From a virus: DNA of 41,549 bases. The stretch's first letter is position 1. Each line of letters opens with the position of its first letter. The stretch is from positions 1-41,549 of the IMG/VR virus record IMGVR_UViG_3300045988_081107, one strand, 5' to 3'. The translations under genes and the position numbers were made by a program. Of the stretch, positions 1 to 41,549 are shown piece by piece. The notes beneath the pieces are model-generated. The model searched no databases and was not told where the DNA came from. It saw only the letters and a list, made by a program, of their open reading frames with translations.

Positions 1-112
1 GCTTCGCCCATCGCATACGGCGGTGGGATGGCATAACGCAAAACTGAAAGGAGTTTTGTTATGGACGATTTTGCAACTGGCTATCTGGCTGGGCAGGACG
101 GCGGCAATAACA
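1..112. repeat. Terminal direct repeat, left copy (identical to 41438-41549); marks circular closure of the contig
   Basis: Bases 1-112 (gcttcgcccatcgcatacgg...gcggcaataaca) recur base for base at 41438-41549. Unit length is 41437 bp. Confidence 0.95.
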
Positions 113-933
113 ACGGCGGATTCTTCGGCAACGAAGGTCTGTGGGCGGTTATCATCCTCGCCATCATCTTCGGCTGGGGCAACTACGGCAACGGGCGCAA
201 CGGCAGCGACAACGGTATGGCGAACTACATCCCGTATCTTGTAGGCACCGGCGCAACCGGTCAGGGCGGCGCAGACACTCGTGCGGCTCTGTCTGATGGC
301 TTCAACCAGCAGAATACCTCCCGCTCTCTGGCGGGCATCCAGAGCGGTATCTGCTCTCTGGGCTATGACCAGCTGGCACAGATGAACGGCGTCAACACCA
401 ACATCTCGAACGGCTTTGCAGGCGTGAACAGCGCCATCTGTCAGCTTGGCTACCAGAACGCACAGCTCGTGAACGGTCTGGAACGCAGTGTGTCCAATGG
501 CGACAACGCCATCAGCCTTGCCATCATGCAGGAGGGCAACGCACGACAGGCCGGTCATACCGCACTTGCCACGCAGCTTGCATCCTGCTGCTGCGAGAAC
601 AAGCAGCTGATCGGCGACCTGAAGTATACCATCGCAACGGAGGACTGCGCTACCCGTCAGGCTATCGCAGACAACGCCCGCGCCATCGTGGACAACTGCA
701 ACGCCAACTTCCGCAGCATGATGGACTACTTCACGCAGGACAAGATTGCCACTCTGACCGCTGAGAACCAGAGCCTGAAGTTTGCCGCTTCTCAGGATCG
801 GCAGAATGCGCTTCTGACCACCGTGATGTCTCAGCAGACCGATACCATCCTGAACCGGGTCAATCCTCGTCCGATTCCCGCTTATCAGGTGGCAAACCCC
901 AACGTGGGCGTGAACTGCTGCGGCTGCTGCTAA
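61..933 (+). CDS. Hypothetical membrane-anchored Cys-rich protein (cassette gene 3)
   Basis: The ATG lies 8 nt after AAGGAG; 290 aa. A Gly/Asn-rich N-terminus is followed by one hydrophobic helix (LWAVIILAIIFGW). There is an internal duplicated motif (SGICSLGYDQLAQMNG / SAICQLGYQNAQLVNG) and Cys clusters (SCCCE, C-terminal VNCCGCC). A hairpin plus T-run follows at 969-1004. Confidence 0.8.
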   Translation: MDDFATGYLAGQDGGNNNGGFFGNEGLWAVIILAIIFGWGNYGNGRNGSDNGMANYIPYLVGTGATGQGGADTRAALSDGFNQQNTSRSLAGIQSGICSLGYDQLAQMNGVNTNISNGFAGVNSAICQLGYQNAQLVNGLERSVSNGDNAISLAIMQEGNARQAGHTALATQLASCCCENKQLIGDLKYTIATEDCATRQAIADNARAIVDNCNANFRSMMDYFTQDKIATLTAENQSLKFAASQDRQNALLTTVMSQQTDTILNRVNPRPIPAYQVANPNVGVNCCGCC

Positions 934-968
934 CCAACACACTCCCTGATAACACCGGGTGAACCATC

Positions 969-1004
969 GGGGCAGGGGTAAGACACCTCTGCCCCTGATT
1001 TTTT
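969..1004 (+). terminator. Intrinsic terminator or attenuator inside the cassette
   Basis: GGGGCAG (969-975) pairs with CTGCCCC (989-995), followed by TGATTTTTT. It sits directly upstream of the AGGAGG RBS of the next gene. Confidence 0.6.
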
Positions 1005-1018
1005 AGGAGGAAAACAAT

Positions 1019-1390
1019 ATGGCTTGCAAAACAAGCTGCAAACTCTGCCCGCACTTGGTCATCAGTCAGGCGGTCACGTTCGCCAACGACACGCTGACCA
1101 TCAACATCCCTGCTGGCTCTTACGCAGCGGGAGAAAAATATTGTCTGGTCATTGCTCAGGCTTTGCCGGACACGACCACCATCAACGCCCCTGTGGTCAT
1201 TACCATTGGCGCAGGCACTACCGCATACCCTCTGACCGATTGCAACTGCGCTCAGGCAACCGCTGAGAGTATTCACACTCGCACCCGCTACGCTACCCGT
1301 GTGGCAACATCTGCGACCGGCACAGGCACGTTCAAGTATCTTGGCTGCTTCTGCCGTTCCCACGCTGATGCGCCCGCGTCCATTTCTTGA
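1019..1390 (+). CDS. Hypothetical small beta-rich protein with Cys-rich N- and C-termini (cassette gene 4)
   Basis: AGGAGG RBS 8 nt upstream; 123 aa. It has an N-terminal MACKTSCKLCP, a core of alternating hydrophobic/polar residues, and C-terminal CNC...LGCFC. Confidence 0.75.
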   Translation: MACKTSCKLCPHLVISQAVTFANDTLTINIPAGSYAAGEKYCLVIAQALPDTTTINAPVVITIGAGTTAYPLTDCNCAQATAESIHTRTRYATRVATSATGTGTFKYLGCFCRSHADAPASIS

Positions 1391-1403
1391 GGAGGTATAG
1401 ATT

Positions 1404-2045
1404 ATGGGCAAGACTAATTTTCGCCGCATGATGATGCTCCGTGACCACGACAAAAACCGTGAGCCGGAACGCGACCGCCTTGAGGAAGAGCGTGACCGCA
1501 GGGAACGCGAACTGGAACGCCGTCTGCGTAAGCTGGAAGGTGGCAACGACCGCTATCCCTACTATCCGCAGGAGGAGAACCGCTACATCGACCCTTACCC
1601 TATCCCCCGCTACCCTGACGTAGAGTATGCGCGCAAGATGCCGCAAATCGGCTTCTCGCAGAGCGATGACTGGGACAAGCGGTCTGGGCAGTACGAGCGT
1701 GGCGGCGCAGACAGCCGCTCCATCAAGATGCCACGTCAGCACCTCACTCACGATGAAGCGGAGGAATGGTGCGACAGCATGGTGAATGCTGACGGCACAA
1801 AGGGCTGTCACTGGACGCTGGAACAGACGCAGGACGTTGCCAAGCAACGCGGTATAACCTGCGATAAAAACGACTTTTGGGCTACGATGAACATGATGTA
1901 CAGCGACTACGGCAAAGTCGCAAAAATGTACAGCGTGGACAACACCAACTTCTACGCTGACATGGCCGCAGCGTTTTTGCAGGACAAAGACGCTGTGGAT
2001 GACAAGCTGGTCGAATACTGGGAGCGCATCGTAGAGCACGCGTAA
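1404..2045 (+). CDS. Hypothetical protein with a charged coiled N-terminus, a Tyr/Pro-rich linker and a globular C-terminal half (cassette gene 5)
   Basis: GAGGAGG RBS; 213 aa. It contains RDRLEEERDRRERELERRLRKLE, then RYPYYPQEENRYIDPYPIPRYPD. The C-terminal half contains FWATMNMMYSDYGKVAKMY. Confidence 0.8.
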   Translation: MGKTNFRRMMMLRDHDKNREPERDRLEEERDRRERELERRLRKLEGGNDRYPYYPQEENRYIDPYPIPRYPDVEYARKMPQIGFSQSDDWDKRSGQYERGGADSRSIKMPRQHLTHDEAEEWCDSMVNADGTKGCHWTLEQTQDVAKQRGITCDKNDFWATMNMMYSDYGKVAKMYSVDNTNFYADMAAAFLQDKDAVDDKLVEYWERIVEHA

Positions 2046-2186: not shown

Positions 2187-2212
2187 TGCAGAAGAAGGGA
2201 CTTGAACCCTAC
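2187..2212 (-). other. Probable attP core: a fragment identical in form to a tRNA 3' end
   Basis: The reverse complement reads AGGGTTCAAGTCCCT-TCTTCTGC-A. This is a T-stem/T-loop (GGTTCAAGTCC) plus a 7-nt acceptor strand plus a discriminator. There is no 5' half, and it lies 50 nt from the stop codon (3' end) of the integrase gene. Confidence 0.55.
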
Positions 2213-2262: not shown

Positions 2263-3417
2263 CTATTTTTCACGGTTCGAAACGTAGTCGTCCAAGCGGG
2301 CGATATATTTTTTATCTTCTTCGTCGCGGAACTGCTGATATACCCGGCGGGTGGTCATTATATCCGCGTGTCCCATCAACTTTTGCGCCACCTTATCCGG
2401 CACGCCTGCATAGAAGAGGTTTGACGCATACAGGTGCCGGAACTGGTGGGCGGTAACGGTGGCTTTGTAGACTTTTCTTTGCGTTATGTGTTCCGGGGTG
2501 TTTCCGGTTTGAGGTATCTTTGCCAGGTGTGTGTACCACTCTGCCAGACCGATGCTCCGGCAATACGAAATCCAGCGGTTGTTATACCCGGACTGAGTAA
2601 GCGGGGCTTCGCTGCCTGACATCACATAATCTGTCGGCTTGCATCTTTTTTGGTGCTCGAGCAGTGCCGGCTTGAACGGCGTCAAGATCGGCACATCGCG
2701 ATAGCCGTTTTTGGTTTTAGGTGTTTCGAGGTATGGCTGGTTTTTGTGCCACGGCATGGCGCGGCTCACATGGATCACGCCGGCGTCAAAGTCCACATCC
2801 TTCCACTGCAGACCGTTCGCCTCGCCGATACGCAGCCCGGTATACTCGAAAAGCTGCGCCCAAAAACCGCAGCCTTCCGGGTGCGCGTGAATCACGCGCT
2901 GTTGTTCGGGCGTTGGCTCTTCTCTGCTGCCCCGCTTCATCCCGGCGGGTGGCGATGCCAGCAGAACAGGATCGCCAGCGCCGTGATAGTTTGCGCACCA
3001 GAACTTGAACACACAGCTTAACACGCTTTTGGCGTTGGTGATGGTGTGCAAAGCCTTGCCATTGGTTTTCATCCGCTCCATATAGCTGCATACCGCCTGC
3101 GTGTCAATATCCTGCATGGGGGTATCTCCAAAATAGCTTATAAAGTTCGCCAGATACCTTTTGTATGCCGTTATCGTGCTGCGCTTTATGGGCGTCCCGT
3201 CCCCTGTGATGTAGTTTTCGTATGCTTGTGCCATCTCCCGGAAGGTGGCACCGCCGTTATTTTTGCTTTCTTCCAGTGTTGCCTGCCGGTAGGCTTCTTC
3301 ATACTTTGCGGTCGCTTCGGCAACCGTGGCGCCCAGGAAGTGCTTATATTTTCCGTCCGGCATTTTGCGCTTGATCTCATACCGGCCGTCAGCGCGTTTC
3401 GTTCTTTTTCTTGGCAT
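2263..3417 (-). CDS. int: Tyrosine recombinase (phage integrase)
   Basis: 384 aa. The C-terminal catalytic region has HQFRHLYASNL...LMGHADIMTTRRVY (R-H-R-Y type signature). It is adjacent to the tRNA-like attP fragment. Confidence 0.93.
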   Translation of the reverse strand: MPRKRTKRADGRYEIKRKMPDGKYKHFLGATVAEATAKYEEAYRQATLEESKNNGGATFREMAQAYENYITGDGTPIKRSTITAYKRYLANFISYFGDTPMQDIDTQAVCSYMERMKTNGKALHTITNAKSVLSCVFKFWCANYHGAGDPVLLASPPAGMKRGSREEPTPEQQRVIHAHPEGCGFWAQLFEYTGLRIGEANGLQWKDVDFDAGVIHVSRAMPWHKNQPYLETPKTKNGYRDVPILTPFKPALLEHQKRCKPTDYVMSGSEAPLTQSGYNNRWISYCRSIGLAEWYTHLAKIPQTGNTPEHITQRKVYKATVTAHQFRHLYASNLFYAGVPDKVAQKLMGHADIMTTRRVYQQFRDEEDKKYIARLDDYVSNREK

Positions 3418-4649: not shown

Positions 4650-6077
4650 TTAGTTACGCAGTGCTTTTTCACGCACTTCCGGTGTAACAGCTTTCAGCAA
4701 ATCATAGAGGTCAATAATATCGGTGATTGCCTGCCGGTCCTGCCCCGTCCATGTGTAATCGAACTTGTTGTAATCCACGCCCTCAAAACGCATGATAACG
4801 GTATTGGCGCTCAAAAGGTTCCGCAGCCATTCAACTTCACTGTCTTCCATTTCAAAGACAGCTCCTGCAAACCACTTGCCAAGCTTTTTGTCATATCCGT
4901 AAGCGGAGTTGTCATAACCGCAAGTGTAAGTGTACTTATAATCTCCACCGCGCAGAATGATGTCATCGATATCCAGCTTGGAAGAGCCCATGTAAGTAAA
5001 ATCTTCCCAGAAAACAATCGTGTTCCCCTTGTCCCAGATATAAAGGTTGGGGCCAATGCCACACGTCTTGCGCTTGTCGAGGTTGTCATAATGCGGGGTT
5101 GTAATCGCCCAGCGGTCTTCTACTGCATCGTAGTTGACATTGCACTTTGCAAGTGCATCCTGAATACCAAGAATCTGCTGTGCTTCTGCTAGCACACCAA
5201 AATTGGTGACAGCAGCTTTTCCCGCATCATCCAATTGGTTGTAGGCATCCAAAGCGGCCACGATTGCCGCGCGTCTGCTGCGCGTGACAGTGCCGATCTG
5301 GCTGATCAGTGCTTCTACCTGCTCCGGGGTTACAGCATCATTCTGAGCATCAATAAAATCGTTTTCTGTTGGTGCGTTTTCCGACATGACAGCTTTTGCG
5401 GCCGTTACACGCTCTTCAACAGTAGCGCTTTGCAGCAGGTTATACAGGTTGATGATATCTGTCATGCCTTGTCGGCTTTCGCTATCGATGATCGTGGTCT
5501 GCGTTCTTTGCGTTCCGTTGACCTTTGCGCCATTGAAACGCAGATATGCAGTGTCGGCACTCAGAATGCGGCTCAGGCAGTCCATATCCTCGTCGTTCCC
5601 GCCAAAGGATACCTCTTCATAAAAAATCCGGTCATCGGGATAGTACTGGCGCGAAACTTTTTTAAACTTGTAGTTCGTCTGACTGGTATAATTATTGTAT
5701 TCGCCAATCAGAACATCTACATCGTTCCAGTAAAAATAGCCTTCGGTGTCCTGGGATGTAAAACTCATACCAAACCGGACTGTATCACCATATAAATACG
5801 CATACGGCATCAGGTAACTTCTATTGTTGTCTGTTTCGTAATCTTCATAAGCGGATTCAAAAAGCCAGATGCCATCCTCGTATGATACATCAATGTTAGC
5901 CAGTGCGTCTTTGATTGCCTGCACCTTGTCGGCATTCACGTCATTCTGCTGCGCAAGCACCGCAAAGGGAACGTCCCCGGCGGGGCTGGCGGCCAGCGCG
6001 GGCAATGCAGTACCTGCCATCAGCGCAGCCGCAATTGCGCCCGCCACAATAACTTTGCATTTTTCAGCAATTTTCAT
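4650..6077 (-). CDS. Secreted protein with two tandem homologous domains (lysogeny-module accessory gene)
   Basis: 475 aa. The signal peptide is MKIAEKCKVIVAGAIAAALMAGTALPALA|AS, with no lipobox Cys. Residues about 50-222 and about 300-466 are paralogous: IKDALANIDVSYEDG / IQDALAKCNVNYDAVEDR, LSADTAYLRFNG / LSANTVIMRFEG, RQGMTDIINLYNLL / RQAITDIIDLYDLL. Confidence 0.85.
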   Translation of the reverse strand: MKIAEKCKVIVAGAIAAALMAGTALPALAASPAGDVPFAVLAQQNDVNADKVQAIKDALANIDVSYEDGIWLFESAYEDYETDNNRSYLMPYAYLYGDTVRFGMSFTSQDTEGYFYWNDVDVLIGEYNNYTSQTNYKFKKVSRQYYPDDRIFYEEVSFGGNDEDMDCLSRILSADTAYLRFNGAKVNGTQRTQTTIIDSESRQGMTDIINLYNLLQSATVEERVTAAKAVMSENAPTENDFIDAQNDAVTPEQVEALISQIGTVTRSRRAAIVAALDAYNQLDDAGKAAVTNFGVLAEAQQILGIQDALAKCNVNYDAVEDRWAITTPHYDNLDKRKTCGIGPNLYIWDKGNTIVFWEDFTYMGSSKLDIDDIILRGGDYKYTYTCGYDNSAYGYDKKLGKWFAGAVFEMEDSEVEWLRNLLSANTVIMRFEGVDYNKFDYTWTGQDRQAITDIIDLYDLLKAVTPEVREKALRN

Positions 6078-18931: not shown

Positions 18932-19004
18932 GCTGCGTTAGCTCAACCGGCAGAGCATCCGGCTCATAACCGGGTCGTTGCAGGTTCGATTCCTGCACGC
19001 GGCA
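18932..19004 (+). tRNA. tRNA with a CAT anticodon (Met elongator type, or Ile2 if lysidine-modified)
   Basis: Hand-folded 73-nt cloverleaf: acceptor GCTGCGT/ACGCGGC, D arm GCTC-AACCGGCA-GAGC, anticodon arm TCCGG-CTCATAA-CCGGG, T arm GCAGG-TTCGATT-CCTGC, discriminator A. No CCA is encoded. It lacks the initiator 3xGC anticodon stem. Confidence 0.85.
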
Positions 19005-19010
19005 TAATAT

Positions 19011-19086
19011 ATTCCCGTAGCTCAATTGGTAGAGCGCTGGTCTCCAAAACCAGAGGCTGCAGGCTCAGTCCCTGCCGGGAATGCCA
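19011..19086 (+). tRNA. tRNA-Trp (CCA anticodon) with a non-canonical T-loop
   Basis: 76-nt cloverleaf: acceptor ATTCCCG/CGGGAAT, D arm GCTC-AATTGGTA-GAGC, anticodon arm CTGGT-CTCCAAA-ACCAG, T arm GCAGG-CTCAGTC-CCTGC, discriminator G, CCA encoded. Confidence 0.8.
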
Positions 19087-19173
19087 GACACACACCCTAT
19101 GAGGGGGCGTCGCATGACTAACAAGACATCACATCCACGCGGCGGGGTGCCCATTGTGAACACATTACGATAT

Positions 19174-19319
19174 GCTGCCATAGCTTAGTGGGCTAGAGCG
19201 CTTTGCATCTGATACATGCAAGGTAACATTGGCGATACACACCACCCATGGCTCTGCGTTTAGCCAGCGCAGAAGTTAATGCGGTGTGGGCGTTGGTTCA
19301 AATCCAACTGGCAGCACCA
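19174..19319 (+). ncRNA. Aberrant 146-nt tRNA-like gene (GAT anticodon loop on an 8-bp stem, plus a 68-nt structured insertion in the variable region)
   Basis: The acceptor GCTGCCA/TGGCAGC pairs perfectly and is followed by A and CCA. The D arm is GCTT-AGTGGGCTA-GAGC and the T arm is GTTGG-TTCAAAT-CCAAC. The hairpin CTTTGCAT-CTGATAC-ATGCAAGG sits at 19201-19223. The insertion at 19224-19291 contains CACACC/GGTGTG and TCTGCG/CGCAGA helices. Confidence 0.55.
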
Positions 19320-34790: not shown

Positions 34791-35036
34791 ATGACTATTG
34801 TGAAAAAAGATGGTTACTTATACCAGTGCACCGTGTGCCCGGATGGGCGCATAAAAAACGGAGGTTGGACGCTGAAAAGCGTCATCCCGAAAACGCTGCC
34901 GCCGGATCAGCTGCTTTTTGAGGATTTCCCGGCCAACAGCAACGGTGGCAATGACTATATCTGGGACGGGCAGAATTTGATTTTTGACCCGCTGCCGGAG
35001 GAAAGCGAGGAAGCAAATGCAGAAAATCAGGATTGA
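34791..35036 (+). CDS. Hypothetical small tail-module protein
   Basis: AAGGAG abuts ATG 34791, so GTG 34800 is the better-spaced start. About 78-81 aa. Confidence 0.55.
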   Translation: MTIVKKDGYLYQCTVCPDGRIKNGGWTLKSVIPKTLPPDQLLFEDFPANSNGGNDYIWDGQNLIFDPLPEESEEANAENQD

Positions 35037-37827
35037 TTTTGATAATCCCGGTCTGCCGAAGCACATCAGCGCGGTGGAGAACGACAGCCAGAGCCGTTTT
35101 TTTCAGGCAACGCTTTACGAAAACGGCAAGGCGTATACTGCGCCTGAAGGAGCTGCTTACAGCATCATGTACCGCGGCTTCGGCCCCCAAAATCAGGGCT
35201 GGTACGATACCATCAACGACGGTGCAGGCAAGCGTGCGGCGTGTGCCGTGTCCGGCAACGTGGTCACCTGCGAGATCGCACGTCAGGCACTGCAGGTGCC
35301 GGGTCATGTGAGCATCGTGCTCTGCGTGACGACCGGAAAAGGCTATATGATCAAGAGCTGGCCTATCGAGTGCGACTGCAAAAACGACCGCTACGACAGC
35401 ACTGCGGAGATCCAGAGCTTTTTTTATATCACGCAGGTCTCTAATGCGGACTGGAATCGGATAATTCAGGCGTTGGAAGAGCTTAAAAACACGATCGACC
35501 CCACCCTCTCCCTCTCCGGAAAGGCTGCGGATGCGGCGAAGGTGGGAGAGGCGGTCAATGCGGAGGCAACCAGAGCGAAGGCAGCCGAGGAGGAGAACGC
35601 AAAGGGGATTGGACAGCTAAAGGAAGATTTAGTTGACTTATCTCATGTGAGATTGCTTAACGGATTTGACAAAGATAATACTGAAATAAATAAATATTAC
35701 AATTCACAAGGTGTGTTATCAGCATCGAACGGATGGACTGCATCCTTATCTTATGCAAGAGTTGAACCAAGCAAATCATACCATGCTAAATCAATATACA
35801 ACTATGATTTGCAAGTCATAGCTGTATGGTATGATGGAGAGCGCAATTTTATAAAGCAAGAATCAAACACATCTTTCATATCTCCAGACAATGCGAAGTA
35901 CGCAAGAATTTGTTGCAACACAAATTATGTCGATGTTCTTGTGTTTGGAAGTTTTGATTCTATTTCTGAGTATTTAGAATTTGGCAATGAAACTGTATTA
36001 AATGATTCGGTTGCAACAGACAGAATTGATGAAGCCATTTTATCTTCACAAAACGAAGCTGATTATGCTTCTAATATCACTGATTTCTATTCTTCCGAAT
36101 TTATGAATATCATATTGAGAAATGGATTTGATAAGACCTCGGTTTTAAAAAATAAATTCCTCTATATAGATGGAAGCATAAAAGATTCAAGTGGTTGGGG
36201 TGTGAACGAAAGCTATATTCTAATCAAACCATCTGTAACATATAAAGCAATGTCATATTCTTTAGACGTTAAACGAAATGTAAAAGTAGCATGGTACGAC
36301 AAGTATAAGGGCTTTATCAGAGTAGATGAAAATGTTGATTTTATAGCACCTAACAATGCTAAATTTGCAAGGTTATGTTGTACATTGAATATCAGTGATA
36401 CATTTGTGTTTACAGAAAAAGAAAATTCATCGGGAGAATATCTGGAGTATGGTTATGAAAAAAGCATAGATGAATCTGTTAAAATTCCAATTAAACCAAT
36501 TAAATCTGAAGTAACATCTGTTAATGGAAAAAAAGGAGATGTTGTACTAACTTCAGAAGATATAGGAATTTCTTCCGATGTAGAAAAAGCTGTTACAGAT
36601 TATCTTAAAAAAAATAATATTATCTCTCCTAAATTAACTATTTCAAAAGTAGTTGCAAGAGGAGGAATTAAAAATTCATATTCTACACCTACATCTGATT
36701 ATGTTACATTCAAGGATATATATCCTGTTTTCGATGTTGGGAGTAATACCACTGGTGCTGTATATGCACTTGCAGAACATCTTGTAGGTGCAACAACACA
36801 GGCTGTATACAAAAGCATAGATGGCGGTGAACATTGGACAAAGATGGGTGATTTACAAATCGACCAAGCCAATGGAATTTGGTACAATTCTATATTTGTT
36901 GAACCGTTCCAAGAAACAATTTACACAATCAAAGTTACAAACGGATATAATGACCCACATCACAATTATATTGAAAGTTTCAACTCTAGCCTTACAAAAA
37001 TCGGCTCTATGGATATTGGTGTTGGTAGAATGTTATCTGGACTTCATAGTATGGATGCTTGTATCAGCAAGGACTACTCCAAACGAGTTGTTATATTTGG
37101 AGAATATGCTTTAGAAGATGCCAAAACTGTTAGAATGTGGAAAACAGTTGATAGAGGTGCAACATGGACAAAAGTTATGGAAAAACGAGCAAATAATGGT
37201 GTTGTATATAGTGGAGAAATAAGACATTTCCATGCTGTATGTTGTGACCCATATACATTTGATTGGTGGGCTTGTAGTGGTGATGGTGATAATCAGTGTA
37301 AAATTTGGAGAAGTCAAGACGATGGGGACACTTGGATGGAAATGTTTGCAAATGGTCAGCAGACAAGAACCTTACAATTTGTATTTGAGAAAGATTGTAT
37401 CTACTATGCAATGGACTCTACTACTGCATCGACCAGAAAGTTTACCAAGCTTTTCAAGATAAACAGGGAAGATATGTCCGTTGTAGAGGTTGCCGACATC
37501 AAAAACAATTTTGCTGTCTACAACATTACAAGGACTTATACACCTAATGGCTTGATTATTTGGGCTTGTAATGAAAACGTTGCAAGTGTTGACGCTGACT
37601 CCGTATGCATCCAGTTTTATGATTACGCAACTGGGACTATTAAGGATATTTACAATTATCCGTTCAATGGGATAAAAAATACTTACAGAGGTTTCCAAGC
37701 AGCATCAAGACGTCAAGACATGGAAAGTGGCAATATTTTCTTCATGCCTACACTTAACATTGGGCAGTCAGCATATGGTACGATGAACACTTGCTCACGA
37801 TATTTTAAGGCTAAAATTACAACATGA
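35017..37827 (+). CDS. Receptor-binding / tail fibre protein: BppU-like N-terminus, two tandem ~115-aa modules, C-terminal Asp-box (BNR) beta-propeller-like domain
   Basis: 936 aa; GAGGAAG RBS. The N-terminus IDFDNPGLPKHISAVENDSQSRFFQATLYENG is BppU-like. The paralogous modules span aa 212-325 and 366-481. The Asp-boxes are SIDGGEHW, TVDRGATW and SQDDGDTW. Confidence 0.85.
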   Translation: MQKIRIDFDNPGLPKHISAVENDSQSRFFQATLYENGKAYTAPEGAAYSIMYRGFGPQNQGWYDTINDGAGKRAACAVSGNVVTCEIARQALQVPGHVSIVLCVTTGKGYMIKSWPIECDCKNDRYDSTAEIQSFFYITQVSNADWNRIIQALEELKNTIDPTLSLSGKAADAAKVGEAVNAEATRAKAAEEENAKGIGQLKEDLVDLSHVRLLNGFDKDNTEINKYYNSQGVLSASNGWTASLSYARVEPSKSYHAKSIYNYDLQVIAVWYDGERNFIKQESNTSFISPDNAKYARICCNTNYVDVLVFGSFDSISEYLEFGNETVLNDSVATDRIDEAILSSQNEADYASNITDFYSSEFMNIILRNGFDKTSVLKNKFLYIDGSIKDSSGWGVNESYILIKPSVTYKAMSYSLDVKRNVKVAWYDKYKGFIRVDENVDFIAPNNAKFARLCCTLNISDTFVFTEKENSSGEYLEYGYEKSIDESVKIPIKPIKSEVTSVNGKKGDVVLTSEDIGISSDVEKAVTDYLKKNNIISPKLTISKVVARGGIKNSYSTPTSDYVTFKDIYPVFDVGSNTTGAVYALAEHLVGATTQAVYKSIDGGEHWTKMGDLQIDQANGIWYNSIFVEPFQETIYTIKVTNGYNDPHHNYIESFNSSLTKIGSMDIGVGRMLSGLHSMDACISKDYSKRVVIFGEYALEDAKTVRMWKTVDRGATWTKVMEKRANNGVVYSGEIRHFHAVCCDPYTFDWWACSGDGDNQCKIWRSQDDGDTWMEMFANGQQTRTLQFVFEKDCIYYAMDSTTASTRKFTKLFKINREDMSVVEVADIKNNFAVYNITRTYTPNGLIIWACNENVASVDADSVCIQFYDYATGTIKDIYNYPFNGIKNTYRGFQAASRRQDMESGNIFFMPTLNIGQSAYGTMNTCSRYFKAKITT

Positions 37828-37889: not shown

Positions 37890-38567
37890 ATGCTCCCTAT
37901 CATGGACGTTTCCCGCTGGCAGGGTAACATTGACTGGAACAAGGTCAAGGCAAGCGGCCTTGTCTCCGGCGTGATGCTGCGGGCGCTGGGCAACAGCGCA
38001 GAGGACAAGCCCAGCAAGCCGTACATCGACCCCACCTTTGAGCGCAATTACCGCGAGTGCCAGCGGCTGGGCATTCCCTGCGGCGTGTACTACTACTGTA
38101 AGGCAACCGGTACGGAAGAGGCTGACGCAGAGCTTGCCCTGCTGCGCAAGGTGCTGACCGGCAAGACAGTGCAGCTGCCCGTTGCGGTGGACATCGAGGA
38201 TACCTATGTGCAAGCGCCGCTCGACAAGCAGACCCTGACGGACCTTGCCGCCTATGCGCTTGCTACGGTGGAGCGCTGGGGCTTTTACGCCATGCTGTAC
38301 ACCGGGCTGTACTTTGGCCGTGATAACCTGTACATGGGCGGCGCGGCACTCAAGCCATACGATGTATGGCTTGCAGCCTACCGCAGCAAAAAGCCTGCGC
38401 CGGAATGGAGTTTCGGGCTGTGGCAGTACACCAGCAAGGGCAAGATTCCCGGCGTTGTGGACGCAATACCGGGCAAGATTTCCGGTGTTGACTTGTCTGT
38501 GCCCTACAAGGACTATGCTAAAATTATCGCAAAGAAGGGTCTGACCCGTCTTCGGGAGGGCAAATGA
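37890..38567 (+). CDS. Endolysin, GH25 muramidase
   Basis: MDVSRWQGNIDWNKVKASG...GVYYY...DIED matches the GH25 catalytic pattern; 225 aa. Confidence 0.9.
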   Translation: MLPIMDVSRWQGNIDWNKVKASGLVSGVMLRALGNSAEDKPSKPYIDPTFERNYRECQRLGIPCGVYYYCKATGTEEADAELALLRKVLTGKTVQLPVAVDIEDTYVQAPLDKQTLTDLAAYALATVERWGFYAMLYTGLYFGRDNLYMGGAALKPYDVWLAAYRSKKPAPEWSFGLWQYTSKGKIPGVVDAIPGKISGVDLSVPYKDYAKIIAKKGLTRLREGK

Positions 38568-38953
38568 CCGAAAAAGAAGCTTTGCTGTGGGTGCTGGGCA
38601 TCTTGGGCAGCCTGTGCGCCGCTGCCATCACGATCGACAAGGTGCTGGAAATCATCCATAAGTACATCAAGAAGGTACAGGCTCCGGACAACGCGCAGAA
38701 CAAGCGGCTGGATGAGCTGGACAAGCGCGTCGGCACCTTGGAACAGGGGCAGCTCCAGCATACACAAGCCCTTGCAAGAGACCTGCGCCGCTTTGACGGC
38801 ATTGACGAAGAAATGCGACTTGTCCTCGTTGGCGTGCAGAACCTTTTAGATGCGCAACTATCCGGCAACAACCGGGAAGGTATGCAAAAAAGCAAGACCG
38901 ACATTAACAATTACCTGCTGAAAGGAGTAACCAATCATGGAAGCAATCCTTAA
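38564..38953 (+). CDS. Membrane-anchored coiled-coil protein in the lysis cassette
   Basis: It has the N-terminal TM LLWVLGILGSLCAAAITI followed by a helical region. It is translationally coupled to the endolysin and the holin. Confidence 0.65.
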   Translation: MTEKEALLWVLGILGSLCAAAITIDKVLEIIHKYIKKVQAPDNAQNKRLDELDKRVGTLEQGQLQHTQALARDLRRFDGIDEEMRLVLVGVQNLLDAQLSGNNREGMQKSKTDINNYLLKGVTNHGSNP

Positions 38954-39278
38954 CACTATTCTCACCCCGCTGCCCGCATGGCTGGCGCTGGTGCTCATCG
39001 TTGTGGGCACTGTGTCGCTTGTGCTGGGGCTTATCCGTCTGGGCTACGGCGCAGCGGTCAGGACGCTGGTGCTTGACCTTATCGACCAAGCAGAACGTGA
39101 GATTCAGGGCACCAAGCGCGGCGCAGAGCGCAAGGCGTGGGTCGTCAAGATGCTGCGCCACTATCTGAACAACAGCCGGTGGGGCAGGTTGATCAGCTGG
39201 GCTATCACCGAAGAGACCATGAGCAAGGTCATCCAGTTTTTCTTTGACCGCATGAAAGCGGCACTGCAAAAGCAATAA
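38937..39278 (+). CDS. Holin (LL-H-like)
   Basis: It has the N-terminal TM AWLALVLIVVGTVSLVLGLI followed by GTKRGAERKAWVVKML, as in LL-H-family holins. 113 aa. Confidence 0.7.
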   Translation: MEAILNTILTPLPAWLALVLIVVGTVSLVLGLIRLGYGAAVRTLVLDLIDQAEREIQGTKRGAERKAWVVKMLRHYLNNSRWGRLISWAITEETMSKVIQFFFDRMKAALQKQ

Positions 39279-39600: not shown

Positions 39601-39879
39601 ATGGCAAGCATTACATACGAGCATCCCGGTGGCTTTACCGAGATGTACGCCGCACAAGAGCAATTTCGTGGCATCACGAAAATGGTCTGCGCACGTTTTC
39701 GTGGCCTCACGAAAACATACCATCTCGGCAATGTCAACAAACTGGTGACATTTTGTCACCGTTTCGCCAGCATTGGCAAAATGGTGCGCAACGCCGGACA
39801 GCTGCCGCAGCCCTTCTGGCTCGGTGGCGCCTGTGGCTGCGGCTCGTGTGGTGCTGCCAGCTGCGCTGCAAGGGCTTGA
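39601..39879 (+). CDS. Possible 92-aa protein with FRG(I/L)TK repeats and a Gly/Cys-rich C-terminus; coding status uncertain
   Basis: AAGGAG lies 8 nt upstream, and codon third positions look genome-typical. However, four DNA palindromes occupy the ORF. The C-terminus is LGGACGCGSCGAASCAARA. Confidence 0.4.
   Translation: MASITYEHPGGFTEMYAAQEQFRGITKMVCARFRGLTKTYHLGNVNKLVTFCHRFASIGKMVRNAGQLPQPFWLGGACGCGSCGAASCAARA
39664..39781. repeat. Array of four palindromes (candidate protein-binding sites or RNA hairpins)
   Basis: TTTCGTG-GCAT-CACGAAA is at 39664-39681 and TTTCGTG-GCCT-CACGAAA at 39697-39714, 33 bp centre to centre. GGTGAC-ATTTT-GTCACC is at 39744-39760 and TTTCGCCA-GCAT-TGGCAAAA at 39762-39781. 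Confidence 0.85.
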
Positions 39880-39889
39880 CCGACAGCAG

Positions 39890-40057
39890 ATGACCGCCGC
39901 CATCAAAAGCGCACCGCTTGGGAGGGTTGACCGTAAGATAGCTTTACTGCGGTACGTTGAGCGGCTCCCGCTGCCGGACATTGCAGCACAGACACATTAT
40001 AGCCGGACGGCGATAGGCTACCGGCTGAAAGGCATTGAAAAAATGCTGGATGTGTGA
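39890..40057 (+). CDS. Small sigma-70 region 4-like HTH protein
   Basis: DRKIALLRYVERLPLPDIAAQTHYSRTAIGYRLKGIEKML resembles ECF sigma region 4. The start is uncertain (ATG 39890; the frame is open from 39773). Confidence 0.5.
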   Translation: MTAAIKSAPLGRVDRKIALLRYVERLPLPDIAAQTHYSRTAIGYRLKGIEKMLDV

Positions 40058-40112
40058 TATACTAATCGTGAGCAACGAATTAGTTTTGAGCTTCTGCTCA
40101 GGCAATTCAAAA

Positions 40113-40148
40113 ACGGCAGGCTTTCGGGTCTGCCGCTTTTCTTTTTTT
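40113..40148 (+). terminator. Intrinsic terminator ending the late/lysis transcription unit
   Basis: CGGCAGGC-TTTC-GGGTCTGCCG followed by CTTTTCTTTTTTT. Confidence 0.8.
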
Positions 40149-40156
40149 ACGATTTG

Positions 40157-40390
40157 TGGTAAAATAACATCAACAAATCCTCCCGGCCTCTCGAAGAAGC
40201 ACAAGAGGGTGGATATCTGAACCCGCTAAGCCTCTCAACGATGCGTATCATGGCGGGCCTTTTAATATGATACAGTCTCCCGCCCGCCTACTTACAGTGC
40301 GTACCATGCGGGAGACGCCTTTAGGCTCGAAAGGCTACGGCCTTTGTAGAGAGCGGCATTGCCTGTGGGCGGTTCCGCTCTTGATTTTTT
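40157..40390 (+). ncRNA. Candidate structured small RNA (function unknown)
   Basis: An extended -10 TGGTAAAAT lies at 40157-65. There is no ORF with an RBS. Helices are GGCGGGC/GCCCGCC (40252-58/40282-88) and GTCTCCCGC/GCGGGAGAC (40275-83/40308-16). The terminator is AGAGCGG/CCGCTCT followed by TGATTTTTT (40350-40390). Confidence 0.35.
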
Positions 40391-40420
40391 GTCTTATTTG
40401 CACTAGTTTTGTCGAAACCC

Positions 40421-40454
40421 TTGTCTTGCAAGTCAAAACGTGATATTTTATTTT
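40421..40454 (+). promoter_or_regulatory. Candidate sigma70-type promoter of the five-gene cassette
   Basis: TTGCAA (40426-31), 17 nt, TATTTT (40449-54). Alternatively TTGTCT (40421-26), 17 nt, TATTTT (40444-49). It lies about 150 nt upstream of the first cassette gene. Confidence 0.45.
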
Positions 40455-40601
40455 TGCTTCCAATGTGAAGCCCTTAACAGTTAAGCGCTCATGCGGATTT
40501 TTCCGTGTGGGTGCTTTTCTTTTTTTTGTCCTTCGTTTGACGTTCGTTGTCCTTCGCTTTTTGTTGATGCGGTACACTGGGAGCATCAGGAGGGATGCAT
40601 T

Positions 40602-41120
40602 ATGAGTTATTATCCAACACCCGGAGCGCCTTACGTTCCGCAGCAGCCCGTCAATCCTTACGGCGGCATGGGAACGGTAGGGCTTGCCACTTCCCTGCCC
40701 AACACACAGATGCAACAGGCACAACCGCAACGTCCGCAGTCGATGAACGGGCAGCAGTCTATTCAGCAGTCGGCACAGGATGGCGGATGGCTGCTTGGCA
40801 GACCTGTGTCCAGCAGAGAGGAATTCTTGGCAATACCGTCTGACCTGTACGGCAGACCGACCTACTGCCCGGACTTGCGCAGTGGCGTGATCTACTGCAA
40901 GCGGCTTAACCCGGACACTTGTGAATCCTATGTACAGGAGTTCTACAGCCCGGAAGCATGGCGGCAGATGCAGGCGCAACAGGCACAGCAGACCGCTGCA
41001 CCGACACAGCAGTATGTGCCTATTGAGCAGTACAACGCTCTTGTGCACCGACTGGATGAACTGGAAAAGTGGCAGAAGAGCTTTTCTAAGCCCGCTGCCG
41101 CAGCGAAGAAAGGAGAATAA
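40602..41120 (+). CDS. Hypothetical protein with a Pro/Gln-rich disordered N-terminus (cassette gene 1)
   Basis: AGGAGGG RBS 8 nt upstream of the internal ATG at 40602; 172 aa. It contains YYPTPGAPYVPQQPVNPYGG...QQAQPQRPQ, then a Cys-containing globular part and a C-terminal coiled coil. Confidence 0.75.
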   Translation: MSYYPTPGAPYVPQQPVNPYGGMGTVGLATSLPNTQMQQAQPQRPQSMNGQQSIQQSAQDGGWLLGRPVSSREEFLAIPSDLYGRPTYCPDLRSGVIYCKRLNPDTCESYVQEFYSPEAWRQMQAQQAQQTAAPTQQYVPIEQYNALVHRLDELEKWQKSFSKPAAAAKKGE

Positions 41121-41123
41121 GCG

Positions 41124-41375
41124 ATGCCCTCTCCGTTTGACATGATTACTCACAGCCCTATCATGCAGCTTGCAAATCTGGCTCGCGCTGGGCAGAACCC
41201 GATGGGGCTTATCCAGCAGTTGGGTGGGCAGAATGCTCCTATCATGCAGGGCTTGAACCTGATTCAGGGTAAGAACGAAGCACAGCTCAGGACGATGGCA
41301 CAGAACCTCGCCAAAGAGCGTGGCATCGACTTGAACCAGCTGGCAAGCGTCCTGAATTTGACGCTGCCCCGGTAA
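41124..41375 (+). CDS. Hypothetical small helical Gln/Leu/Asn-rich protein (cassette gene 2)
   Basis: AAAGGAG RBS; 83 aa. It starts 3 nt after the upstream stop. Confidence 0.7.
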   Translation: MPSPFDMITHSPIMQLANLARAGQNPMGLIQQLGGQNAPIMQGLNLIQGKNEAQLRTMAQNLAKERGIDLNQLASVLNLTLPR

Positions 41376-41437: not shown

Positions 41438-41549
41438 GCTTCGCCCATCGCATACGGCGGTGGGATGGCATAACGCAAAACTGAAAGGAGTTTTGTTATG
41501 GACGATTTTGCAACTGGCTATCTGGCTGGGCAGGACGGCGGCAATAACA
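41438..41549. repeat. Terminal direct repeat, right copy (identical to 1-112)
   Basis: Exact 112-nt match to the window start. It includes the RBS and first 17 codons of the CDS that starts at 61. Confidence 0.95.

Follow-up and report, generated by a model that had tools for sequence, protein, structure and literature searches.

A conserved five-gene cysteine-rich cassette of gut viruses, possibly encoding a membrane-anchored stalk-and-knob fibre

Introduction

The closest described systems to the locus reported here are the endospore appendage subunits Ena1A/B of Bacillus (DUF3992), the knobs of phage tail fibres and collagen-like phage proteins together with the C-terminal (C1q/TNF-like) domain of BclA, the spanins Rz/Rz1 of phage lambda, and the spore coat and exosporium proteins CotY/ExsY, CdeC and YjcZ. 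Here we describe a cassette of five genes in a stretch of viral DNA of 41,549 nt (IMG/VR record IMGVR_UViG_3300045988_081107, positions 1 to 41,549; hereafter, the window). The genes, all on the + strand, are PQ (gene 1; 40602-41120, 172 aa), sm (gene 2; 41124-41375, 83 aa), p1 (gene 3; 61-933, 290 aa), p2 (gene 4; 1019-1390, 123 aa) and p3 (gene 5; 1404-2045, 213 aa). Our tentative reading, to which we assign a probability of roughly 0.35, is that the cassette is a self-contained accessory operon whose products build a stalk-and-knob fibre. The fibre would sit on a lipid membrane, for which the cytoplasmic membrane of an infected cell or lysogen is the most likely candidate.

The cassette resembles each of the described systems in part. 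In its structural model, p2 is like Ena1A/B in length (about 120 aa), in its 8-strand beta-sandwich, in a flexible Cys-bearing N-terminal arm and in further conserved Cys residues. However, no DUF3992, PDB or fold match to Ena was obtained among the matches listed, the carriers include phages of non-sporulators (Butyrivibrio and Bacteroides are non-sporulating) and archaeal-assigned viruses, and the abundant product here would be a membrane-anchored helical rod, not a beta-sandwich protein. At the level of fold, the best likeness of the p2 model, found in the BFVD database, is to the knobs of phage tail fibres and collagen-like proteins, while the BclA C-terminal domain is weakly matched by members of the alternative gene-4 family; in contrast to the tail-fibre knobs, p2 stands alone, unfused to a shaft, is highly conserved rather than hypervariable, and lies outside the tail module. 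The p1 protein recalls the lambda spanins in its anchor, helical rod, conserved Cys, Pro-rich C-terminal end and lysis-gene neighbours, but most carriers are phages assigned to Clostridia, an outer-membrane lipoprotein partner and a family match are lacking, and four extra conserved genes accompany it. The likeness to spore coat and exosporium proteins lies in composition only (Cys clusters, Gly/Asn/Tyr tracts and no signal peptides), whereas similarity by hidden Markov models is absent and the host range is contradictory.

The only families to which proteins of the cassette could be assigned are phrog_16490, phrog_21718, phrog_20016 and DUF7841, entries to which no function is assigned, and no function of these families is given in Pfam, NCBIfam, PHROGs, PADLOC or PDB. 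Literature searches on DUF7841, the PHROG identifiers, the carrier phages and crAss virion proteomics returned no functional information, and no description of an operon linking the three PHROG families with DUF7841 was found in the literature. The cassette therefore appears to lie outside the known kinds of phage module, in the sense that it fits no known system, which is a matter of absent matches and not of a demonstrated new mechanism.

Organization and synteny of the cassette

The window represents a phage contig of about 41.4 kb that is circularly closed or else terminally redundant. Its positions 1-112 are an exact copy of 41438-41549, and the start codon of p1 thus stands at both 61 and 41499. 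Because the window is circular, the cassette spans its ends. An earlier reading of the region 61-2045, made from the sequence alone, had spoken of a Pro/Gln-rich gene 1, which is the open reading frame (ORF) at 40602; all the sequence features which that reading listed for 61-2045 are likewise present at the coordinates given there.

Iterated profile searches on 91 loci showed a collinear gene order: PQ, sm, p1, p2 or an alternative gene-4 family (famB), and finally a DUF7841 protein or an R/Y/D-rich protein (RYD). The arrangement PQ-sm-p1-famB-RYD was found at 36 loci, PQ-sm-p1-p2-DUF7841 at 15, PQ-sm-p1-p2-RYD at nine and PQ-sm-p1-famB-DUF7841 at three, and PQ precedes p1 in 76 of the 91 loci, with sm present in 79. 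The grouping of these genes into one cassette, as the sequence-only reading had it, is thereby supported.

The gap between genes 1 and 2 has a median of about -4 nt and that between genes 4 and 5 a median of 11 nt, while the spacer between p1 and gene 4 has a median of 85 nt. In this spacer a terminator-like hairpin occurs at 45 of 81 loci, compared with two of 79 in the sm/p1 spacer, which is of similar size, and 0/70 and 0/75 in the other spacers. In the window, the terminator scan places it on the + strand at 969-1004 (969-995 plus the T-run), with an 11-bp stem containing eight GC pairs. The presence of the terminator after p1 in many loci indicates that it is a conserved part of the cassette design. 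It likely acts as an attenuator by which genes 4 and 5 are expressed at a lower dosage, and PQ, sm and p1 would therefore be made in excess over these two, which agrees with the differential dosage suggested earlier. Fibre and pilus operons set the ratio of major to minor subunits, and the conserved terminator after p1 is reminiscent of that.

A hydrophobic segment is found in p1 only; PQ, sm, p2 and p3 are without one and, for this reason, would be made in the cytoplasm. The PADLOC defence models gave no match at E<=0.05 for the five cassette proteins and two upstream ORFs.

Features of p1

The p1 protein consists of an acidic Gly/Asn-rich N-terminal tail, a W-flanked hydrophobic helix at about residues 26-40, a Gly/Asn linker and repeated xICxLGYxxxAQxxNG units, followed by a PxPAYxVxNP motif and a Cys/Gly tail. 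In the window it contains GGFFGNEGLWAVIILAIIFGWGNYGNG, the duplicated motif reads GICSLGYDQLAQMNG and AICQLGYQNAQLVNG, and the C-terminal end is VNCCGCC. The tail type is PxPAYxVPNP followed by a G/Y/N/C-rich ...GCGC end; a correlation of tail type with the gene-4 family was looked for and none was seen. More than 7,498 homologues of p1, 1,503 of p2 and 153 of p3 were scored (one cluster of p1 holds 4,044 sequences and one of p3 7,778), and the three are therefore real genes.

The protein is a member of phrog_16490 (E 3.9e-40; E 1.8e-50 for a crAss-like homologue), and the depositors of vir335, a virus with a recorded Methanomassiliicoccales host, gave the same label to its p1-like protein. 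No NCBIfam family was matched at E<=1, and Pfam yielded only SF-assemblin (E 0.064). Searches of PDB chains with the profiles of p1, PQ and famB, and with the sequence of p3, returned nothing beyond generic coiled-coil noise. The sequence-only reading had likened p1 to the tiny YjcZ-type sporulation membrane proteins. This likeness could not be sustained, as no YjcZ or coat family was matched in Pfam or NCBIfam and p1 is 290 aa long, compared with about 50 aa.

Cys accounts for 3.8% of p1 and 6.5% of p2, against 1.55% (maximum 3.57%) in 28 other window genes; the Cys-rich composition of the two proteins exceeds chance. In both families, Cys is among the best-conserved alignment columns. C176-178 (the CCC motif) and C290 of p1 are invariant, and C98, C127 and C196 are conserved near or above 90%; in the p2 family, C10 and C42 are conserved above 90% and C3 at 81%. 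Functional conservation of the cysteines is thus supported.

In the AlphaFold2 (AF2) model of the p1 monomer, which is of low confidence with a predicted local distance difference test (pLDDT) value of 51, one short helix (26-36) and two very long ones (84-146 and 151-267) recur consistently. The length of p1 varies by whole repeat units, for example in the 261-aa variants, which is typical of rods. As its hydrophobic core is so short (about 13 residues; AF2 helix 26-36), a single transmembrane segment is plausible for p1 rather than proven. Among 162 p1 sequences, the N-terminal flank of the hydrophobic helix is acidic (2.06 D/E and 0.40 K/R per 20 residues) and the C-terminal flank slightly basic (0.70 K/R), charges that would weakly favour a topology with the N-terminus out and the C-terminus in.

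Further insight into the rod comes from two independent natural in-frame chimeras, P0183 (L144 1699-3066) and P0173 (L145 9001-9978), which come from different data sources, have different junctions and are carried by Rep3/ParA phage-plasmids. In both, the C-terminal half of p1 (93% identical) is preceded by the first 147 residues of the 154-aa product of a post-holin gene, and in P0183 collagen triple-helix repeats stand at the junction. These loci have lost PQ, sm and the p1 anchor; p2 and DUF7841 are still downstream. Since collagen, an obligate trimer, is joined to it, the p1 rod is likely fibre-like and compatible with a trimer. Cys clusters that end a trimeric rod resemble the interchain knots of collagens. 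Shorter chimeric ORFs were also seen, P0353 joining the N-terminus of p1 and P0297 that of PQ to the C-terminus of p2, which indicates that deletions within the cassette circulate.

The gene-4 proteins p2 and famB

The p2 protein starts with MACKTSCKLCP and has Cys residues at positions 3, 7, 10, 42, 75, 77, 110 and 112. Its AF2 model, built with 74 sequences (pLDDT 82.7, predicted template modelling score 0.72), is an 8-strand beta-sandwich of residues 13-107, with flexible Cys-bearing ends at the N-terminus (C3, C7 and C10) and the C-terminus (C110 and C112). The model thus bears out the beta-rich core between Cys-bearing termini that had been described from the sequence. However, the assignment to DUF3992 or an Ena-type fold that had accompanied this description was not recovered. 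DUF3992 was absent from the matches of p2 and 73 relatives at E<=10 (25 of 29 families listed). In addition, the p2 profile gave three chance-level matches among all PDB chains at E<=10, none of them Ena, and Ena was likewise missing from the best 50 Foldseek matches. In Pfam, p2 matched only TFX_C at E<=1 (E 0.2).

A Foldseek search of PDB with the p2 model found nothing at E<=0.001, the best match being a baseplate/tail-fibre chain of Pa193 (E 0.13, TM-score 0.43). In BFVD, members of the p2 family came first, and next were knobs at the C-terminal ends of phage proteins, both tail-fibre proteins and proteins with collagen repeats (E 1e-5 to 1e-3, TM-scores 0.45-0.57). One crAss-like protein in this database carries the p2-like fold and DUF7841 in a single chain.

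The alternative gene-4 product, famB, corresponds to phrog_20016 (E 1e-43) and is a small beta-rich protein with a conserved CC pair. Profile-profile comparison with hhalign gave a probability of 1% for p2 and famB, that is, no detectable relation. Two of 45 famB members weakly match the Pfam family BclA_C (best E 2e-4), the only echo of Ena, coat or exosporium folds that was obtained; for p2 itself no such similarity was found.

PQ, sm and p3

The likely start of PQ is at 40602 (MSYYPTPGAPYVPQQ). With 14% Q and 10.5% P, the protein begins with a disordered region rich in P, Q and Y, contains a small conserved domain and ends in a short segment resembling a coiled coil. It matches phrog_21718, a family of no known function (E 1e-7), and the profile-profile comparison with the neighbours of p1 in Bacteroides phages gave a probability of 2%. 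PQ and sm were suspected to be common in phages of lactic acid bacteria, but tblastn found a PQ-like protein only in gut and faecal viruses.

The small protein sm is rich in Met, Gln and Asn and has no Cys. By our reading, an sm-related ...KG(I/V)DxN... motif may be present at the N-terminus of p1 in the versions from Bacteroides phages and Methanomassiliicoccales viruses. A likeness of sm to the Met-rich STI1/Sgt2-type domains that bind transmembrane segments was considered and was dropped, as Pfam gave no support for it at E<=0.01.

The N-terminal half of p3 is disordered and rich in R, E, D, Y and P, including an RE/RD-rich stretch, which the sequence-only reading took for a coiled coil and which may be one, and RYPYYPQEENRYIDPYPIPRYPD. 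Residues 109-206 are the Pfam domain DUF7841 (PF25223; E 2e-25, 89.6 bits against a cut-off of 25.2). PF25223 is present in 117 of the 120 homologues listed, none of which is functionally named. The comparison of p3 with Tyr-rich coat proteins found no support, no coat or exosporium family being matched in Pfam or NCBIfam.

Distribution and hosts

With one genome taken per species, a scan for p1 relatives yielded 263 loci. Most of these are on contigs assigned to Clostridia of the gut (Oscillospiraceae, Acutalibacteraceae and Lachnospiraceae), and the set includes genomes, complete or from isolates, of Anaerotruncus colihominis, Lachnospira intestinalis and Acutalibacter. The hallmarks of the homologues are the Gly-rich W-flanked hydrophobic helix, QCCC, an ...AASQxxQ... 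helix, PxPAYxVPNP and the Cys/Gly tail. Homologues of p1 are also present in six phages of Clostridium perfringens, in Butyrivibrio phage Ceridwen, which has been seen only in the lytic cycle, in the plaque-isolated Bacteroides uniformis phage C3_41T2LP, whose module ends with a DUF7841 gene (E 5e-16), and in at least 14 Crassvirales (crAss-like) genomes, where depositors labelled them 'spike protein' or 'viral fiber'. Two further homologues belong to viruses with a recorded Methanomassiliicoccales host; one of them, vir335, is from baboon faeces, and its protein has two CCC motifs and is without the Cys tail. No match was found in Bacillus phages among 50,697 phage records, and every match with a sample label comes from gut, rumen, faeces or sewage.

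As p1 occurs in viruses with a recorded Methanomassiliicoccales host as well as in phages of both Bacillota and Bacteroidota, its target must be host-agnostic. What is conserved across phyla is p1, DUF7841 and the p2-like fold; conservation of the whole five-gene set is not claimed. A DUF7841 protein with 69% identity and the label 'Segatella hominis' was considered as a recent cross-phylum transfer and rejected. The Rep3/ParA phage-plasmid contigs on which it sits carry a GH25 lysin and an SPP1-type holin, which suggest a Gram-positive host, and the label is therefore doubtful and probably a binning error.

The position of the cassette in the genome varies. In the window, as in Ceridwen, cr116_1 and A. 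colihominis, it lies 3' of the lysis genes; the C. perfringens phage XP41-N3 and C3_41T2LP have it among early or recombination genes, and phage-plasmids next to Rep3/ParA plasmid modules. Three contigs of the last kind (L086-L088, 58-92 kb) combine phage lysis and fibre genes with a Rep3 initiator and ParA, and have the cassette. In vir335 (L089 5121-7339), the p1-like gene is followed by genes for a coiled-coil protein, a 541-aa adhesin-like protein with hydrophobic ends and internal repeats, and a multi-pass membrane protein; p1 there thus lies in a membrane or surface gene cluster.

Among IMG/VR relatives of the window integrase (36-99% identity), the cassette is convergent to the integrase gene, in nearly every case with DNA beyond the integrase, and in one integrated relative the cassette directly adjoins host genes. 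In more distant integrase relatives the place of the cassette is taken by a serine recombinase and a repressor, which is uninformative. The cassette of the window sits between the lysis genes and attP (the phage attachment site)/integrase, and in the prophage state it would occupy the attachment-site end.

Interpretation of the cassette

From the gene set and its fixed order, the conserved terminator and cysteines, the predicted helical rod and beta-sandwich and the host range, we infer the following assembly, in which oligomeric state, thiol linkage, protein contacts, membrane topology and biological role are all conditional. First, p1 would be made in excess together with PQ and sm, with the short W-flanked hydrophobic helix as its anchor. 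Second, the helical part of p1, of about 190 residues, would form a parallel rod, probably a trimer. Third, the invariant CCC motif and the terminal Cys/Gly tail would staple the rod, by metal-thiolate bonds in the reduced anaerobic cell and by disulfides once oxidised. Fourth, smaller amounts of p2 and p3 would be made past the terminator, and both would cap or decorate the rod, p2 as a tail-fibre-knob type of beta-sandwich whose flexible ends bear Cys and p3 as an adaptor composed of a disordered R/Y/D-rich arm and DUF7841. Fifth, the Met/Gln-rich sm and PQ may act as assembly helpers. The membrane of the infected cell is favoured as the site because no feature of p1 is as constant as the hydrophobic helix, the prophage position is terminator-insulated and att-proximal, and the cassette has an early-gene location in some phages. 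A guess at its role is an accessory function at the level of the envelope, independent of host type; examples would be superinfection exclusion, the masking of receptors and protection of the progeny.

A self-assembling, thiol-linked structure, with its oligomeric state and its linkage taken conditionally, remains the most economical reading. To this extent the cross-linked module proposed in the sequence-only reading has survived, whereas its spore-surface part and every family named in it have not.

Several observations weigh against a membrane-anchored fibre. The p1 model is of low confidence (pLDDT 51) and too poor for a fold search, and the hydrophobic core of p1 has only about 13 residues. 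The charge bias of its flanks is weak, and the N-terminal tails of p1 from Bacteroides and archaeal viruses are 50-80 residues long, which fits the opposite topology. At the same loci, p2 is better conserved than p1 (53-70% against 33-44% identity), unlike receptor-binding tips. In addition, a fibre with a trimeric knob normally needs equal dosage and not an attenuator. Finally, outside Bacillota only p1, DUF7841 and the p2-like fold are shared, and PQ is not detectably related to the neighbours of p1 in Bacteroides phages.

The main rival, which we consider only slightly less likely than the membrane fibre and likewise tentative, is an accessory fibre of the virion, placed on the head, neck or side, with p1 as shaft, p2 or famB as distal knob and DUF7841, PQ and sm as chaperones. 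Such a fibre could be useful in the gut, for example in adhesion to mucus or particles, and this usefulness would explain why phages of unrelated hosts share it; the host-agnostic distribution, limited to gut and faecal viruses, is in keeping with it. The fold of p2, which resembles the knobs of tail and collagen fibres and has a baseplate/tail-fibre chain as its best, non-significant, PDB match, points in the same direction. So do the chimeras in which the C-terminal half of p1 follows a collagen-containing post-lysis protein, and relatives of the chimera-bearing elements carry a post-lysis block with a T4 Gp10_C baseplate domain. In the window, Ceridwen and cr116_1, the cassette comes after the tail and lysis genes and shares their strand. 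The partner proteins are without a signal-peptide-like hydrophobic segment, and depositors of crAss-like genomes chose the labels 'spike' or 'viral fiber' for the p1 homologue. However, the W-flanked hydrophobic helix, the most constant feature of p1, would be odd at the base of a fibre, and a terminator-insulated cassette in the attP-proximal position of a moron in prophages, or among the early or recombination genes of XP41-N3 and C3_41T2LP, is not what this reading would suggest. The strong conservation of p2, unlike that of receptor-binding tips, and the unequal dosage implied by the attenuator also speak against it.

Two other readings are weaker than both kinds of fibre. The first, which we regard as improbable, is a membrane-tethered cytoplasmic condensate or scaffold held together by the disordered P/Q/Y-, G/N- and R/Y/D-rich regions. 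Such a structure would serve as an organiser of phage replication or assembly, or would hold a host factor or RNA sequestered; the early proteins p1 and p16.7 of phi29, coiled-coil proteins with a membrane anchor, are a loose parallel. Long low-complexity regions in three of the five proteins, partner proteins that are all without export signals and the early-region location in XP41-N3 and C3_41T2LP are consistent with a cytoplasmic structure; the charge bias of p1 weakly favours N-out, C-in, and a high Cys content is unusual in exported proteins of Gram-positive bacteria. Nevertheless, no nucleic-acid-binding or replication domain was detected in the family scans, host-specific targets are hard to square with carriers from Bacillota, Bacteroidota and archaeal-assigned viruses, and the knob-like p2 fold and the collagen chimeras point to a fibre.

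The second, which seems more improbable still, is an accessory function in lysis, with p1 as a spanin-like protein or holin regulator that disrupts the envelope, or times its breakdown, after the action of holin and endolysin. The N-terminal anchor, coiled-coil rod and Pro-rich Cys-bearing C-terminus recall lambda Rz plus Rz1, and the cassette directly follows the endolysin/holin genes in the window, Ceridwen, cr116_1 and Anaerotruncus colihominis. Most carriers, however, are assigned to Clostridia, which have no outer membrane, and the window already has an endolysin and two holin-like genes. A lipoprotein partner is lacking, no lipobox or signal-like segment being present in the five products except the p1 helix, and no Pfam holin or spanin family was matched. 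A lysis function would also leave four further conserved soluble proteins unexplained, and the cassette is away from the lysis genes in XP41-N3 and C3_41T2LP.

The reading from which this work started, a spore-surface or exosporium-like module of YjcZ-like, Ena/DUF3992-like and Tyr-rich coat proteins that a prophage would add to the spore or envelope of its host, is largely refuted by the host range and the failed family tests and is essentially excluded: the composition is as that reading described, the p2 model has the general Ena layout (about 120 aa, eight strands and a flexible Cys-bearing N-terminus), the two famB members match BclA_C weakly, coat proteins are also without signal peptides and one host, C. 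perfringens, forms spores, but no DUF3992, YjcZ, CotZ or other sporulation family was matched by p1, p2 or p3 in Pfam or NCBIfam (DUF3992 in 0/74 members of the p2 family at E<=10, with 25 of 29 families listed), neither the PDB search beyond chance level (E<=10) nor the best 50 Foldseek matches returned an Ena chain for p2, and the module is absent from Bacillus phages among the 50,697 records and present in Butyrivibrio phage Ceridwen (seen in the lytic cycle only), the plaque-isolated Bacteroides phage, at least 14 crAss-like genomes and Methanomassiliicoccales-assigned viruses.

Genomic context and regulatory regions

The tailed phage represented by the window is temperate. Genes from terminase to tail, assigned solely from the size and order of the ORFs, occupy about 21-38 kb, followed by a GH25 endolysin gene (37890-38567) and two small hydrophobic holin-like ORFs (38564-39278). 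A tyrosine integrase is encoded on the - strand at 2263-3417, and a helix-turn-helix repressor-like gene adjoins it. Between the cassette and the integrase gene lies a palindromic hairpin (2134-2180) with a 20-bp stem and T-runs on both sides, which the terminator scan matched as three overlapping hits on the - strand only; its position fits a bidirectional terminator ending the cassette, the + strand role being our reading. In the same interval, 2187-2210 (- strand) reads ...TGCAGAAGAAGGGACTTGAACCCT... and resembles the T-arm and acceptor 3' end of a tRNA, although ARAGORN called no tRNA; by our reading only, this is the look expected of an attP core that targets a tRNA gene.

Upstream of PQ, on the + strand, lies a non-coding structured leader of about 540 nt (40060-40601). 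Its predicted RNA fold has an energy of -180.2 kcal/mol (z = -4.26 against shuffles), and the scans placed three terminator-like hairpins in it (40114-40135, 40365-40380 and 40483-40516) and a promoter-like site at 40035-40063. Rfam identified no riboswitch or other known RNA in the leader, the matches being sub-threshold only (abiF RNA, 24 bits against a cut-off of 37; ctRNA_pGA1, 23.5 against 45). The region could act as a leader with a regulatory function, or could be a small RNA. Just 5' of the leader, a 94-aa ORF (39773-40057) matches Sigma-70 region 4 weakly (E 0.0025). Conservation of this ORF reaches 95% in L001, the closest relative, and 36-47% in L015 and L018, two other loci where it also precedes the cassette. 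Regulation of the cassette or of late genes is a possible function of its product.

Other features of the phage were noted in passing. Genes for tRNA-Met (CAT) and tRNA-Trp (CCA) lie within 18932-19316, and a third tRNA-like stretch of 143 nt (19174-19316), scored at 44 bits by Rfam and not called by ARAGORN, could be an interrupted or intron-bearing tRNA. A 947-aa ORF of tail-fibre size (34984-37827) contains a part (36001-37000) with a GC content of 0.32, compared with about 0.55 elsewhere, which suggests a recently acquired foreign distal (receptor-binding) segment. In the lysogeny region, a 475-aa ORF on the - strand (4650-6077) has a signal-peptide-like start (MKIAEKCKVIVAGAIAAALMAGTALPALAASP...) and halves that look alike; it could encode a secreted or surface cargo protein of the prophage.

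Significance

The families of the cassette are very abundant; the phages that carry them infect the dominant bacterial groups of the gut, and many crAss-like phages are among them. Sharing across phyla and with archaeal-assigned viruses, so far in gut, rumen and faecal samples, suggests a function tied either to the habitat or to a universal cell component, and either answer would extend the list of things that phages do. The module is directly testable, as it is present in cultivable phages, among them the six C. perfringens phages (with XP41-N3 and CPD1 as examples), Ceridwen and C3_41T2LP.

In its most specific form, which we put forward as doubtful, the cassette would represent a previously undescribed viral accessory structure: a thiol-stapled stalk-and-knob fibre, anchored by a hydrophobic helix, perhaps redox-responsive, horizontally mobile among viruses of Bacillota, Bacteroidota (including crAss-like phages) and methanogens, and confined to the anoxic animal gut. 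If this is true, its many cysteines would be reduced or metal-bound inside the anaerobic host and would become cross-linked on exposure to oxygen, and the fibre would be an adaptation to the gut habitat, not to a particular host.

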